This document shows, one piece after another, positions 2,507-9,862 of a stretch of DNA of 40,799 nucleotides. A program made the translations under genes and the position numbers. Under the pieces are notes generated by a model. That model was not told the DNA's origin. It worked only from the letters and a program-made list of their open reading frames with translations, and did no database searches. Position 1 is the first letter of the stretch, and every line of letters begins with the position of its first letter. Source of the DNA: Polyangiales bacterium (GTDB lineage Bacteria; Myxococcota_A; Polyangia; Polyangiales; DASUME01); NCBI GenBank assembly GCA_038257655.1, contig JBBSJC010000002.1:1-40799 (forward strand), written 5' to 3'.

Positions 2507-2529
2507 AAACACCGATTGACCATCGGTTT
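2507..2529. promoter_or_regulatory. imperfect inverted repeat upstream of the BlaI-type repressor gene (weak operator candidate)
   Basis: AAACACCGAT-TGACC-ATCGGTTT has a perfect 5-bp core (CCGAT/ATCGG) and extends with a 2-nt bulge. It lies 24-46 nt upstream of the ATG at 2553. I saw no TACA..TGTA cop-box or bla-operator sequence, so this assignment is tentative. Confidence 0.2.
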
Positions 2530-2552
2530 CTTGGAGCGTAGGCTCCCTGCGC

Positions 2553-2963
2553 ATGTCCAGAGGTCCGATCAATCCGCCGTTGCTTGGGGAGCTTGAGAGC
2601 GCCGTGATGAACCACGTCTGGGCGGGTCGCGATGGAGAGGCCAAAGCCGTGCACGCCACGCTCGGCAGGCGCCGCGGAATTACGCTGAACACCATCCAAT
2701 CGACCCTCAAGCGCCTCTACGAAAAAGGCCTGCTAACCCGCGACAAGGTGAGCCACTCCCATGTCTATCGTGCGCGTATTTCCCGTGAGGAGTTCCACCG
2801 CATCTTGATCGGCGACCTGGTCTCAGGCCTGCTCGAAAAGCACACCGATTCCGTAGTGTCGGCCTTCGTCGACGTCGCGGAACGCGCAGGACCGGAGACG
2901 CTCGACAGGCTCGAGGCGATGATCGCTGACCGTCGGCGTGAACGCGCGGGGACGAAGCGCTGA
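2553..2963 (+). CDS. BlaI/MecI/CopY-family winged-helix transcriptional repressor
   Basis: 136 aa. LGELESAVMNHVW...TLGRRRGITLNTIQSTLKRLYEKGLLTRDKVSHSHVYRA is the Penicillinase_R-type wHTH. The C-terminal helical dimerisation part contains VVSAFVDV at residues 101-108, aligned by hand to the S. aureus BlaI LVLNFVEN cleavage region. The protein has no Cys at all, so it lacks the CopY CxCx4CxC metal site. Confidence 0.85.
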   Translation: MSRGPINPPLLGELESAVMNHVWAGRDGEAKAVHATLGRRRGITLNTIQSTLKRLYEKGLLTRDKVSHSHVYRARISREEFHRILIGDLVSGLLEKHTDSVVSAFVDVAERAGPETLDRLEAMIADRRRERAGTKR

Positions 2964-6764: not shown

Positions 6765-6775
6765 AGGGACCTCCC

Positions 6776-9700
6776 GTGATCGATCGCATGCTCGCTTGGT
6801 CTTTGACGCACCGCCCGGCCGTGCTGACGCTGTCGCTCGTGCTGCTCGCGTGGGGCGCAGTTACGGCGCGCAACATGCCCGTCGATGTCTTTCCAGACCT
6901 GACAGCGCCCACGGTCACCGTGATTACCGAAGCACACGGCATGGCTCCCGAGGAGCTCGAGTTGCGTGTCACCTTTCCGATCGAGACCGCGCTCAATGGC
7001 GCTCCGGGCGTGCGACGCGTGCGCTCGGCCACGGGCGTGGGCATCTCCATCGTGTACGTGGAGTTCGAGTGGGGGGCTGAGATCTTTCGTGCGCGTCAGA
7101 TCGTGAGCGAGAAGCTGCAGCTCGTACGCGATGCGCTGCCAGCCGAGGTCGAGCCACCCGTGCTCGCACCCATCTCCTCGATCATGGGCGAGATTCTGTT
7201 TCTTGCGCTGAACAGCGAGCGCGAATCGCCCATGGCCGTACGGACGTTTGCGGACTTCACACTGCGCAGGCGCCTACTCGCCATCCCGGGCGTGTCGCAG
7301 GTGATCGTCACGGGCGGCGAGCGTCGTCAGTACGAGGTGGTGCTCGAACCAGAGCGCTTGCTCGCCTACGACCTGACGGTTTCTGAGGTGGTGCGGGCAC
7401 TCGAGCAGACCAGCGTCAACGTGTCCGCGGGCTTTGTGAACGAGGGGGGGCAGGAGTACCTCGTGCACGGAATCGGCCGCGTACGCACGCCGGACGACGT
7501 GGCCGAAACCCTGGTTGCGCTGCGTGACGGCGTTCCTGTGCTCATCCGGCACCTGGGCAGCGTGCGCATTGGGGCCGCGATTCGCAGGGGGGAGGGCTCG
7601 TACAACGCGCATCCGGCCGTGGTGGTAGGGATCCAAAAGCAGCCCGGCGCCAATACGCTCGCGCTGACTCGCCGCATCGACGCCGAGCTTCAGGCGATGA
7701 CGAAGACTTTGCCCCCCGGCATGAAGGTGCACGCAAACGTCTTTCGGCAGGCCGACTTCATCGAGCGCGCGGTGCACAACGTCACGGCGGCGCTGCGCGA
7801 CGGCGTCTTCTTGGTGTTTCTGGTCGTCTTACTCTTTCTCGCCAGCGCCCGCGCCAGCCTGATCACGATCGTGGCGATTCCGCTTTCGCTCGTCACCGCG
7901 ACGTTCGTGCTCTCCGCGGTCGGGGCCACGCTCAACACCATGACCCTGGGCGGCATGGCGATAGCCGTCGGTGAGCTCGTTGACGATGCCGTCATCGACG
8001 TGGAAAACGTGCTGCGACGGCTGCGTCAGAATGCGCTGCGCGAACCTGCACTTCGTATGCCCACGCTGGAGGTCGTGCTCGCCGCAAGTCGGGAGATCCG
8101 CAGCTCCATCGTGTTTGCCACATTGGTCGTCGTGCTCGTGTTCTCCCCGTTGTTCGTGCTCTCGGGTGTCGAGGGGCGGCTGTTGATGCCGCTGGGGCTT
8201 TCGTACATCGTGGCGCTCGGTGCCTCGTTGCTGGTCGCCGTCACGGTGACACCGGTCTTGTGCTCGTTCCTCTTGCCGCGCGAGGCGGAGAGAGCCGATC
8301 ATGAACCCCGTTTCGCACGCTGGCTCAAGCGGCGATACGCGCCCTTCCTAGAACGCGCGCTGCAGCATCCAGGCCGCGTCGCCGCCGTCGCGATCGCGCT
8401 CTTGATCGCGTCCCTCGTGGGCCTGAGCTTCTCAGGCCGAGCCTTCCTGCCGGAGTTCCGGGAGGGTACGTTGACGGTCGCCGCGGTCACCTTGCCCGGC
8501 ACGTCACTCAAAGAGTCCGATGCGCTGGGACGTCGCATCGAACAGGTCTTGCTGAAGCAGCCGGAGGTCGTCTCGGTCGCGCGCCGCACGGGGCGCGCAG
8601 AGCTCGACGAGCACGCCCAAGGCACGAATGCCGCGGAGCTCGACGTGAGCTTGCGCGGCGGAAAACGCAGCCGCGAGGAGCTGCTCGAAGCTCTGCGCCG
8701 CGAGTTTTCGATGATCCCCGGCATGAACATCACGATCGGACAACCGATAGGTCACCGCATCGATCACATGCTCTCTGGCACGCGCGCCAACATCGCCGTC
8801 AAGATCTTCGGCGATGACCTGGCCGAGCTCCGCAGGCTTTCTTCCTCCATCGAAACGACCATGCGTGGTATTCCCGGCGTCGCTGACCTTTCGCGCGAGC
8901 AGCAGTCGGACATCCCGTTCATCCGCGTGCGTTTCGATCGCAGCGCGATTGCGCGCTACGGGCTGCACGTGGCCGAGGTTGCAGAGGCGCTGACGATCGC
9001 AAGCGGCGTGCACGTCGTGTCGCAAGTGACCGAGGGCCAAGCCATCTTCGACCTGGTGGTGCGTTTCGACCCCGCGAAAGCCAGCACACTCGACACGTTG
9101 CGCGATGTGCGCATCAAAGCTCCCTCTGGTGCGGAAGTGCCGCTGCGTGCGCTAGCCAGCGTGGAGCGCGATCGGGGGCCGAGTGAGATCGGTCGCGAGA
9201 ACGTGCAGAGAAAGCTGGTCGTGAGCTGCAATGCCGCGGGCAGAGATGTGGTGAGCCTAGTCCGAGATATTCAGACTGCGATCGAGCGGGATGTGAAGCT
9301 CCCCGGAGGCTATCGCGTGGAGTACGGCGGCCAGTTCGAAAGCGCGGAGGCGGCTTCCAAGACCTTACTGTTTCTGGGCATCTTGTGCGTGCTCGGAGTG
9401 CTTGGCCTGTTGTACTCGGCTTTCGGCTCCCTACGGGATGCCTTGCTGGTCATGCTCAATTTGCCGCTCGCGCTGATCGGTGGCGCGGTAGGGGTCTTTG
9501 CCACGGGCGGTGTGCTGTCTGTCGCATCCCTCGTCGGCTTCATCACGCTCTTCGGCATCGCCACACGCAACGGGATCATGCTGGTCTCCCACATCCGCCA
9601 CCTGGTCGCAGAAGAAGGCGTCACCGAGGTGGACGAAGCCGTGCGGCGGGGTGCGACAGAGCGCCTGGTTCCCATCTTGATGACCGCGCTCGCGGCGGGC

Positions 9701-9862
9701 CTGGGGCTCGTGCCGCTCGCGCTGTCTGCGGGAGAGCCTGGCAGCGAAATCCAGGCGCCGATGGCCGTCGTGATTCTGTGTGGTCTGCTGACCTCGACGG
9801 CACTCAACATGTTCGTGGTGCCCGCGCTGTACCGACGCTACGGCTCGCTGGCATGCCCATGA
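6776..9862 (+). CDS. CusA/CzcA-family heavy-metal-efflux RND permease
   Basis: 1028 aa. The N-terminal block MPVDVFPDLTAPTVTVITEAHGMAPEELELRVTFPIETAL...VRRVRSATGVGISIVYVEFEWGAEIFRARQIVSEKL...PISSIMGEI matches the HME-RND family. The architecture is 12 TM with two large periplasmic loops. The TM4 motif is AIAVGELVDDAVIDVEN (VDD..EN at nt 7979-8008). Confidence 0.9.
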   Translation: MIDRMLAWSLTHRPAVLTLSLVLLAWGAVTARNMPVDVFPDLTAPTVTVITEAHGMAPEELELRVTFPIETALNGAPGVRRVRSATGVGISIVYVEFEWGAEIFRARQIVSEKLQLVRDALPAEVEPPVLAPISSIMGEILFLALNSERESPMAVRTFADFTLRRRLLAIPGVSQVIVTGGERRQYEVVLEPERLLAYDLTVSEVVRALEQTSVNVSAGFVNEGGQEYLVHGIGRVRTPDDVAETLVALRDGVPVLIRHLGSVRIGAAIRRGEGSYNAHPAVVVGIQKQPGANTLALTRRIDAELQAMTKTLPPGMKVHANVFRQADFIERAVHNVTAALRDGVFLVFLVVLLFLASARASLITIVAIPLSLVTATFVLSAVGATLNTMTLGGMAIAVGELVDDAVIDVENVLRRLRQNALREPALRMPTLEVVLAASREIRSSIVFATLVVVLVFSPLFVLSGVEGRLLMPLGLSYIVALGASLLVAVTVTPVLCSFLLPREAERADHEPRFARWLKRRYAPFLERALQHPGRVAAVAIALLIASLVGLSFSGRAFLPEFREGTLTVAAVTLPGTSLKESDALGRRIEQVLLKQPEVVSVARRTGRAELDEHAQGTNAAELDVSLRGGKRSREELLEALRREFSMIPGMNITIGQPIGHRIDHMLSGTRANIAVKIFGDDLAELRRLSSSIETTMRGIPGVADLSREQQSDIPFIRVRFDRSAIARYGLHVAEVAEALTIASGVHVVSQVTEGQAIFDLVVRFDPAKASTLDTLRDVRIKAPSGAEVPLRALASVERDRGPSEIGRENVQRKLVVSCNAAGRDVVSLVRDIQTAIERDVKLPGGYRVEYGGQFESAEAASKTLLFLGILCVLGVLGLLYSAFGSLRDALLVMLNLPLALIGGAVGVFATGGVLSVASLVGFITLFGIATRNGIMLVSHIRHLVAEEGVTEVDEAVRRGATERLVPILMTALAAGLGLVPLALSAGEPGSEIQAPMAVVILCGLLTSTALNMFVVPALYRRYGSLACP

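Follow-up and report, generated by a model that had tools for sequence, protein, structure and literature searches.

A BlaI-type repressor and a sensor-less M56 protease with a conserved His/Cys motif as a possible metal-responsive switch for heavy-metal RND efflux operons in Myxococcota and other bacteria

Gene content of the operon

The DNA analyzed here (the window) is a stretch of 40,799 nucleotides from a Polyangiales bacterium, positions 1 to 40,799 of contig JBBSJC010000002.1 in GenBank assembly GCA_038257655.1. Open reading frames read from the window sequence include five co-directional and tightly packed genes between positions 2553 and 9862 of the plus strand, which encode a BlaI/MecI-type repressor, an M56 (BlaR1-like) membrane protease that lacks a sensor domain, and the three parts of a heavy-metal efflux resistance-nodulation-division (HME-RND) pump. 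We consider it probable that these genes form a self-regulated heavy-metal efflux operon governed by a proteolytic switch of the BlaI/BlaR1 type, in which a metal site stands in place of the beta-lactam sensor domain. The genes are as follows.

2553-2963, plus strand: winged-helix repressor of the BlaI/MecI/CopY family (PF03965), 136 amino acids, lacking any Cys and hence CxC; a 74-nt intergenic region lies ahead of it
2963-3952, plus strand: sensor-less M56 (BlaR1-like) membrane gluzincin (PF05569), 329 amino acids with four transmembrane (TM) helices; overlaps the repressor gene in a TGATG at 2961-2965
3949-5211, plus strand: outer-membrane factor (OMF), TolC/CzcC-like (PF02321, OEP); overlaps the protease gene in a GTGA at 3949-3952
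5214-6764, plus strand: periplasmic adaptor (membrane fusion protein, MFP) of the TIGR01730/CzcB type, probably a lipoprotein; follows the OMF gene after a 2-nt gap
6776-9862, plus strand: HME-RND inner-membrane pump (TIGR00914), 1028 amino acids; follows the MFP gene after an 11-nt gap

The repressor matches PF03965 (Penicillinase_R) with an E value of 1.3e-22 and 80.8 bits against a cut-off of 22.6, its residues 11 to 125 covering profile positions 1 to 114 of 115, and the protease matches PF05569 with 41.5 bits (cut-off, 31). The adaptor scores 121 bits against TIGR01730, along with CzcB/NccB-type matches, and the pump, whose OMF and MFP partners adjoin it, scores 837.4 bits against the CusA/CzcA model TIGR00914 (cut-off, 701.45). 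The OMF is 35 to 54% identical to the OMF proteins of the related syntenic loci described below. An original prediction made from the sequence alone had named both the five-gene unit, with its TGATG, GTGA, 2-nt and 11-nt junctions, and the repressor, protease and heavy-metal pump families; the coordinates of the open reading frames bear out the former, and the Pfam and NCBIfam scores bear out the latter. No two-component, extracytoplasmic function (ECF) sigma factor or MerR-type gene adjoins the pump in the window.

A conserved His/Cys motif in the M56 protease

Residues 81 to 104 of the M56 protein, in the loop between its second and third TM helices (L2), read HCLVHDDGHAHLCFSHLPHHAPHP and contain eight His and two Cys. 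A word-indexed search of 5.8 billion proteins returned 29 relatives, all of 315 to 334 amino acids save one 190-residue fragment, and a HMMER search with the N-terminal 135 residues against 1.84 billion cluster representatives gave 120 matches, nearly all of 320 to 335 amino acids. The closest relative, with 87% identity, is found in a metagenome-assembled genome of the Polyangiales; a tblastn search with the M56 protein against 72,556 plasmids gave no match. An alignment of 119 full-length members of the M56 family was used to assess conservation, and four elements of the window protein are marked by it.

3200-3250, plus strand: D80 to H96, DHCLVHDDGHAHLCFSH, conserved His/Cys core of the TM2-TM3 loop and predicted periplasmic metal site
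3530-3544, plus strand: H190-E-Q-S-H194, catalytic zinc motif, 99 to 100% conserved
3650-3664, plus strand: E230-Q-A-C-D234, gluzincin ExxxD motif with the third zinc ligand (E230, 99%; D234, 100%)
3911-3925, plus strand: H317-H318-A-V-E321, conserved tail just past TM4, low in Lys and Arg and on the same side as L2

Conservation within the loop core is 97% for D80, 98% for H81, 100% for C82, 98% for H85, 95% for H89, and 100% for each of H91, C93 and H96, and in the tail it is 99% for H317, 94% for H318 and 99% for E321. The family motif can thus be written D80-H-C-x2-H-x3-H-x-H-L-C-x2-H96, together with H317-H318-x2-E321 at the C terminus. Of the 119 members, 102 keep every one of the eleven candidate ligands, a level equal to that of the catalytic HExxH and ExxxD motifs, which correspond to H201ExxH and E242xxxD in BlaR1. 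The original prediction had counted eight His and two Cys in this loop and looked for their conservation among orthologs. The count is correct and conservation holds for the part from D80 to H96; the other half of the run, with H99, H100 and H103, is lineage specific and is seen in just 16 to 22 of the sequences.

Topology and fold of the protease

Hydropathy gives four hydrophobic TM segments, and residues 130 to 296, between TM3 and TM4, hold the protease domain. Averaged over 28 homologs, the number of Lys and Arg residues is 4.1 in the loop between TM1 and TM2 (L1), 0.4 in L2, 0.2 at the N terminus and 0.4 in the C-terminal tail; L2 is about 26 to 29 residues long in these proteins and holds on average 6.1 His, 2.0 Cys and 0.0 Met. 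Under the positive-inside rule these counts place L2 and the C-terminal tail in the periplasm and the protease domain in the cytoplasm, which is the side where a DNA-binding substrate must be. The predicted topology thus has three periplasmic parts, namely, the N terminus, the TM2-TM3 loop and the tail, and a cytoplasmic gluzincin domain.

The AlphaFold2 model of the M56 protein has a predicted local distance difference test score (pLDDT) of 89 and a predicted template-modeling score of 0.86. L2 is modeled as a coil (residues 79 to 103, pLDDT 66 to 80) that connects a helix of residues 41 to 75 to a long helix of residues 104 to 141, and the latter runs straight from L2 into the protease domain. 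The best Foldseek matches of the model are the cryo-electron microscopy structures of Staphylococcus aureus BlaR1 (8EXQ/8EXP; probability, 1.0; E value, 2e-3; template-modeling score, 0.41). Both the charge distribution and this structural match agree with the orientation put forward in the original prediction, namely, a His/Cys loop outside and an HExxH domain inside.

The blaR1 equivalog models (the NF000326/NF033109 set for BlaR1 and MecR1) scored 19.2 bits (cut-off, 400) and 16 bits (cut-off, 1200), and the match to the blaR1 model spans only residues 106 to 244, the protease core. With scores so far below the cut-offs and coverage of the core alone, the penicillin-binding domain is truly absent. 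This agrees with the earlier description of a 329-residue protein with no sensor domain. The same description had the protein stop right after its last TM helix, and that part has to be amended, as 13 further residues follow TM4 in the conserved tail HHAVESILSPLLQ. The HHxxE tail stands at the point where BlaR1 continues into its sensor domain, so a metal ion bridging L2 and the tail would be an economical substitute for the contact between loop and sensor.

An (A/S/G)-F-G motif is also present in the family, in a cytoplasmic loop of low model confidence (F in 83 of the 119 sequences); the window protein has G272-M273 at this place (3776-3781). The motif sits 83 residues past the first His of HExxH, the same spacing as that from H201 to S283-F284, the autocleavage site of S. 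aureus BlaR1. It may be a conserved autocleavage site; the spacing agrees with this, and the alignment to the BlaR1 sequence did not confirm the correspondence.

Association with HME-RND pumps across species

The genomic setting of the M56 gene was surveyed by scanning one genome per species, for 185,579 species, with the protease-domain pattern [LIV]A[AST]EQ[AV]CDE. Since neither L2 nor the neighboring genes entered into this pattern, which came from the protease domain alone, they had no influence on which loci were chosen. Forty-six loci were returned, and their neighbors were identified by tblastn with the window proteins. What follows the M56 gene divides them thus.

33 of 46 loci: OMF, MFP and RND genes, or the start of this set where the contig ends
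7 of 46 loci: a generic TonB-dependent receptor
1 of 46 loci: an outer-membrane PF13557 protein
3 of 46 loci: uninformative, as the contig ends
2 of 46 loci: weak matches outside the family

Of the 41 loci that are family members and long enough to show the next downstream gene, 33 accordingly have the same gene order, and an RND pump is present in 23 of the 31 loci with at least 5.5 kb of downstream sequence. Wherever the contig reaches far enough, the gene immediately before the M56 gene encodes a BlaI homolog. Most hosts are Myxococcota, among them Polyangiales, Haliangiales, Nannocystaceae, Bradymonadaceae and Cystobacter fuscus Cbf 10; Massilia frigida, Ghiorsea, Desulfuromonadales and Desulfobacteraceae make up the rest. 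The cultured C. fuscus and M. frigida are both among the 33 loci with the pump genes. The complete genome of Persicimonas caeni (locus L047) has, by Pfam label, Penicillinase_R, Peptidase_M56, OEP, CzcB-type adaptor and ACR_tran in a row. The arrangement is far beyond chance, and an enrichment of BlaI/M56 pairs next to metal-efflux genes, which the original prediction had looked for, is borne out by the 33 of 46 blindly chosen loci and by P. caeni. Two HME-RND subtypes are found behind the pair: the His-type pump of the window and a CzcA-type pump with DFG..DGS..VEN that scores 1104 bits against TIGR00914.

These observations make it very probable that the BlaI/M56 pair regulates the pump operon. 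If the adjacency were incidental, the pair would regulate only itself or unrelated genes and the pump would have a promoter of its own. No terminator or promoter was called computationally on either side of the unit, where consensus models were scanned over positions 2380-2620 and 9780-9980, and this leaves some room for such an arrangement; set against it, the genes overlap or stand 2 to 11 nt apart, they keep the same order in 33 loci across several phyla, and the putative operator described below occurs once per locus. We regard independent regulation of the pump as scarcely credible.

The seven loci with a TonB-dependent receptor form a sister clade (L029, L030, L037, L038, L040, L041 and L042; for example, L037, 9462-13046), and the occurrence of the same motif in front of such a receptor is the main puzzle for the reading as a metal switch. 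The receptor is about 700 amino acids long, the loop motif in this clade is one residue shorter (DHCxxHxxHPHLCLxH) and the tail reads LHHxxEH. The receptors had no match to a copper-receptor model and matched generic siderophore, B12 and heme models only, below the cut-offs. The operator found at the pump loci is absent from this clade, and a 7-mer scan of the upstream regions found no shared alternative.

A different kind of variation is seen at L012 (16964-19567; similar in L015), where the RND gene is followed by a DMT/EamA-like permease with an extreme C-terminal His tail and then by a second BlaI/M56 pair (18177-18548 and 18545-19567) with a GTGA overlap. The TM2-TM3 loop of the M56 protein in this second pair is degenerate, LLDHDTAELCFEPG, which points to a paralogous switch whose ligand set is different or lost.

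Pump, adaptor and candidate metal

By similarity the window pump is equidistant from ZneA and CusA, at about 497 to 499 bits each. The positions that we take to be functionally important in the two reference pumps, the acidic proximal site of ZneA and the Met triad of CusA, were compared in the porter domain.

8612-8767, plus strand: porter-domain stretch with H613, E621, H660 and H664, aligned with the positions of the acidic proximal site of ZneA

ZneA residues D602, E610, D654 and D658 align with H613, E621, H660 and H664 of the pump, and CusA residues M573, M623 and M672 align with A569, A619 and H664, residues that are conserved as such in the syntenic pumps. Among 22 syntenic pumps, the stretches DEHAQ...SE.D and HRIDH show no variation. 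TM4 of the window pump reads AIAVGELVDDAVIDVEN and not DFG-DGA-VEN; loci L002 and L005 carry the CzcA-type pump with DFG..DGS..VEN behind the same regulator pair. Assignment of the window pump as a CusA-type Cu(I)/Ag(I) pump was rejected for the lack of the Met triad, and assignment as a canonical CzcA/ZneA-type pump was rejected on the TM4 motif and the acidic proximal site, neither of which is matched. The pump is an HME-RND subtype with H613, H660 and H664 in place of ZneA acids and with neither the CusA nor the CzcA signature.

The adaptor exceeds a typical CusB or CzcB by about 100 residues and has a His-rich stretch directly past the lipoprotein Cys. Its N-terminal tail contains HEHGEHGHPHG and its C terminus HGHSH; the syntenic adaptors keep the His-rich N-terminal tail and a C-terminal P(A/G)HGH(A/S)H, the latter even in distant members. 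It is possible that these are metal-capture tails. The His-based sites in sensor, adaptor and pump favor Cu(II), Zn, Ni or Co over a Met-bound Cu(I) or Ag, while the invariant Cys pair keeps Cu(I) among the candidates. On the basis of these His sites and of the neighboring copA/copB genes, the metal would most likely be a cation that prefers His, for example, Cu(II)/Cu(I), Zn, Ni or Co.

Another reading is that the M56 protein senses something other than a metal, such as periplasmic redox or disulfide stress through C82 and C93, or envelope stress, in which case the cluster would be structural or redox active and the pump part of a stress response. Two Cys are invariant in the predicted periplasmic loop, the sensor-less BlaR homologs of Pseudomonas and mycobacteria apparently respond to signals other than beta-lactams, and some members of the family control a TonB-dependent receptor and no exporter, all of which would suit such a signal. 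It sits poorly, however, with the chemistry of the eleven invariant residues, which are classical metal ligands (five to seven His, two Cys, Asp and Glu), with the attachment of HME-RND operons of two subtypes in 33 loci, and with the conserved His sites that adaptor and pump carry of their own; in addition, PetP of Synechocystis (see below) offers a metal precedent. We therefore hold a nonmetal signal to be rather improbable and think it reasonably likely that the trigger is periplasmic metal acting through the predicted His/Cys cluster.

The repressor and its candidate cleavage site

The closest solved relative of the repressor is Mycobacterium tuberculosis BlaI (2G9W; E value, 1.8e-10). Two statements of the original prediction about the protein, that it has no Cys and that VVSAFVDV occupies residues 101 to 108, are correct as read from the sequence, and its alignment of A104-F105 with the N101-F102 region of BlaI is upheld by an ungapped HMMER alignment to MecI (1SD6/1OKR), in which A104-F105 falls on the N-F pair at MecI residues 101 and 102.

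2862-2867, plus strand: codons for A104-F105, candidate scissile bond within (S/A)AFVD

N101-F102, in the C-terminal dimerization helix, is taken to be the scissile bond of BlaI and MecI, in keeping with the report on S. aureus BlaI that the original prediction cited. The sequence (S/A)AFVD is nearly invariant across 41 repressors of the family, and A104-F105 is thus a candidate site for cleavage by the protease. Cys is absent from most of these repressors (0 to 2 per member), and CxC occurs in none.

A further possibility is that the repressor itself senses cytoplasmic metal through His residues, in a CopY-like manner, while the M56 protein merely clears released or metal-loaded repressor or has no signaling role. 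The best NCBIfam match of the repressor is indeed CopY/TcrY (TIGR02698); repressors of the closest, pump-associated group (clade A) contain five to eight His, including a conserved SH(A/S)HVY; and the authors of the PetR study also weighed direct binding of copper. However, the match, at 48.4 bits, is far under the cut-off of 121.95, and the repressor has neither the CxCx4CxC or CxC motif nor any Cys, so that membership in CopY/TcrY was rejected. The His residues are also not kept: repressors that precede the same pump in the distant loci L026, L035 and L043 have only two to four His and have lost the HxH, which argues against direct His-based sensing. Such sensing would, moreover, leave the invariant His/Cys cluster on the protease unexplained. 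It was rejected as the main model on these grounds and seems to us improbable.

A putative operator and promoter

An inverted repeat that overlaps a promoter-like element lies in the 74 nt ahead of the repressor gene.

2508-2530, plus strand: operator-like inverted repeat AAcACCGA-TTGACCA-TCGGTTTc, from sequence and recurrence in related loci
2516-2521, plus strand: TTGACC, -35-like hexamer in the 7-nt spacer and the edge of one arm
2539-2544, plus strand: TAGGCT, weak -10-like hexamer, 17 nt past the -35 box and 8 nt before the ATG

The operator core is ACCGATTGACCATCGGT at positions 2511-2527; as the pattern ACCGATTGACNNTCGGT it occurs once in the window, against 0.07 occurrences expected by chance. 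It is found exactly once in 25 of the 46 related loci and in each of these lies upstream of the repressor gene. Alignment of 27 loci on the core gave the consensus AA.ACCGATTGACggTCGGTtTT, that is, ACCGA-N7-TCGGT with A/T-rich extensions or, in full, AAnACCGA-N7-TCGGTnTT, with a TTGAC -35 box within the spacer. In 25 of the 33 sequences aligned, the start codon is 38 to 42 nt past the anchor. Visual inspection shows a TAnnnT element at a roughly similar distance, about 17 nt further on, in most loci, but as an alignment column it is not strongly conserved. The promoter proposal comes from this conservation across loci, the consensus scans having been empty. With 6 to 9 nt between the -10 element and the start codon, a leaderless mRNA is probable, and the absence of a Shine-Dalgarno sequence together with this spacing suggests that the repressor mRNA is leaderless or nearly so in most Myxococcota members. 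In the distant members L025, L028, L032, L034, L035 and L043, 62 to 89 nt separate the operator from the start codon. A match to the operator core with two mismatches at 17505-17521 (minus strand) lies inside a gene for a FAD-linked oxidase (16848-18248) and was treated as a chance occurrence.

The overlap with the -35 box puts the putative operator in a repressing position, and the operon would be autoregulated through it, as bla is. One could also imagine the inverse logic, in which metal inhibits the protease or the BlaI-type protein activates some promoters, as PetR does at petJ, so that the system reports scarcity of metal. PetR is both a repressor and an activator, and the clade with a TonB-dependent receptor would suit uptake that is switched on at low metal. 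The position of the palindrome over the -35 box speaks for repression, however, and the target here is an exporter, useful only at high metal; the TonB-receptor clade, which lacks this operator, may work differently and would then leave the present locus unaffected. Inverse logic thus appears unlikely for this operon, and derepression by metal is the direction that we adopt below.

Comparison with known systems

The original prediction knew of no characterized metal sensor of the BlaI/BlaR1 type for such a pump. As a statement about metal sensors this does not hold, as PetR/PetP (Slr0240/Slr0241) of Synechocystis sp. PCC 6803 is such a system and responds to copper; the targets of PetR/PetP are petE and petJ, not a pump. 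PetR is degraded in extracts only when both PetP and copper are present, and two conserved Met residues in the 14-residue TM2-TM3 loop of PetP were proposed as ligands by the authors of that work. The two systems share a four-TM M56 protease with no C-terminal sensor domain, a regulator without the Cys motif of CopY, a stop codon of the regulator gene that overlaps the start codon of the protease gene (TGATG in the window), and a TM2-TM3 loop proposed as the metal sensor. They differ in the loop itself, which in the present family is about 26 to 29 residues long and has the pattern D-H-C..H..H.H.C..H with no Met, accompanied by HHxxE (PetP being compared by its published description). They also differ in their targets (petE/petJ there and an HME-RND efflux operon here), in the DNA site (a GACN5GTC core for PetR and AAnACCGA-N7-TCGGTnTT here) and in their hosts, which are cyanobacteria in the one case and mainly Myxococcota in the other.

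BlaI/BlaR1 and MecI/MecR1 of Staphylococcus and Bacillus resemble the present pair in the fold of the repressor, in the aligned N-F or A-F region and in the autoregulated operon, and BlaR1, the best structural match of the M56 protein, shares its four-TM gluzincin arrangement, HExxH and ExxxD included. BlaR1, however, is about 585 to 600 amino acids long and ends in a penicillin-binding (SxxK) domain that the 329-residue protein lacks, and it responds to beta-lactams where the signal here is presumed to be a metal and the target an efflux pump; outside HExxH the likeness in sequence is marginal. Closer in architecture are the atypical BlaIR pairs (Rv1846c/Rv1845c of M. tuberculosis, BlaIR of Mycobacterium abscessus and PvmSR of Pseudomonas aeruginosa), in which a BlaI-type regulator is likewise paired with a sensor-less M56 protein. 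Their signals are unidentified or tied to beta-lactams or virulence, and the text on PvmS that was searched, by which it was compared, mentions no His/Cys loop or metal efflux.

CopY/TcrY of the Firmicutes shares the winged-helix family and is the best NCBIfam match of the repressor. In CopY, a C-terminal CxCx4CxC motif that is absent here lets the repressor itself sense Cu(I)/Zn(II), and there is no partner protease of the M56 kind. CusRS, CzcRS and CopRS and the ECF system CnrYXH sense periplasmic metal and turn on HME-RND operons through a membrane sensor, and so are alike in function only; the proteins are unrelated, and in place of an irreversible cut in a repressor they use reversible phosphorylation or release of a sigma factor. 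Two-component control in Cupriavidus is the subject of a published paper.

Full-text searches that paired BlaI/M56 with RND, czcA, cusA or heavy metal gave no account of the present arrangement. The sole hint comes from a review, which notes a blaR1 gene close to Ni/Co resistance genes in a Shewanella genome. The family is best classed as a PetRP-like, BlaIR-derived proteolytic switch that differs in its ligand set, its tail, its operator and its wiring to HME-RND pumps.

Proposed mechanism

From these features of sequence and predicted structure we propose the following scheme. In the absence of metal, the dimeric repressor would occupy AAnACCGA-N7-TCGGTnTT over the -35 box and shut off its own, probably leaderless transcript. 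The M56 protein would reside in the inner membrane and expose its N terminus, L2 and tail to the periplasm and its gluzincin domain to the cytoplasm. Periplasmic metal may then be bound by D80, H81, C82, H85, H89, H91, C93 and H96, probably together with H317, H318 and E321. In BlaR1, the signal is carried by the extracellular loop between helices 2 and 3 and by helix 3. As with the displacement of extracellular loop 1 (EL1) in BlaR1, the resulting change would be passed down helix 3 (residues 104 to 141), which is modeled as unbroken from the loop into the protease domain. The activated protease would cut the repressor at (S/A)A-FVD, and the cleaved repressor would no longer dimerize or bind DNA, so that the OMF-MFP-RND pump would be made along with new sensor and repressor.

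The part of this scheme that goes furthest is that D-H-C-x2-H-x3-H-x-H-L-C-x2-H and HHxxE constitute a previously unrecognized metal-sensor module that replaces the beta-lactam-binding domain of BlaR1, with a metal that bridges the TM2-TM3 loop and the tail, mimics the BlaR1 rearrangement and triggers cleavage of a Cys-free BlaI repressor. Our confidence in that specific claim is evenly divided. Several observations count against the scheme. L2 is the least confident part of the AlphaFold2 model, and when the M56-family profile was compared with PDB sequences, BlaR1 was aligned around HExxH only (E value, 0.84), the likeness elsewhere being marginal. The two periplasmic Cys may do no more than form a disulfide, and the cluster could serve a structural or redox purpose. 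The -10 element is weak, with a match to just three of the six consensus positions, which explains why the consensus promoter scanner made no call. The pump lacks the CusA Met triad even though copper genes adjoin it. Finally, the seven members that carry the same motif in front of a TonB-dependent receptor fit poorly with derepression by metal, as the receptor would be an uptake protein.

If the scheme is correct, HME-RND pumps would in these organisms be under irreversible proteolytic control that is reset only by synthesis of new repressor, and proteolytic derepression would take its place beside the textbook control of such pumps by two-component systems and ECF sigma factors and beside MerR-type control. 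The one characterized metal-dependent case would be extended from the choice of cofactor by PetR/PetP to metal resistance and to other phyla, and a signal would be assigned to one branch of the sensor-less BlaIR systems. The eleven invariant residues offer a concrete set of ligands to mutate in studies of how a sensor-less M56 protease is activated, with relevance also to PetP and the atypical BlaIR pairs, and the cultured hosts C. fuscus Cbf 10, P. caeni and M. frigida make the switch testable. The family also calls for caution with gene labels, since "blaR1/blaI" in environmental genomes and resistome surveys need not mean beta-lactam resistance.

Neighboring genes

Upstream of the operon, a ChrA chromate transporter gene (286-1761, minus strand; PF02417, E value 4e-81) is divergent from, and slightly overlaps, a gene at 1645-2478 (plus strand) for a 277-residue protein similar to Fe/Mn superoxide dismutase (SOD) with an RR-type signal; together the two resemble a chrA/chrC pair. 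Downstream, copB (PF05275; E value, 1e-64) and the gene for a 648-residue multicopper oxidase (CopA/PcoA-like) occupy 9897-12780 on the minus strand and run convergently toward the RND gene, the end of which is 35 nt away. The ACCGA-N7-TCGGT operator is not present upstream of copB and the multicopper oxidase gene, and there is no two-component regulator nearby. With the chrA/SOD-like pair, the efflux operon and copB/copA, the first 13 kb of the window look like a metal-resistance island.

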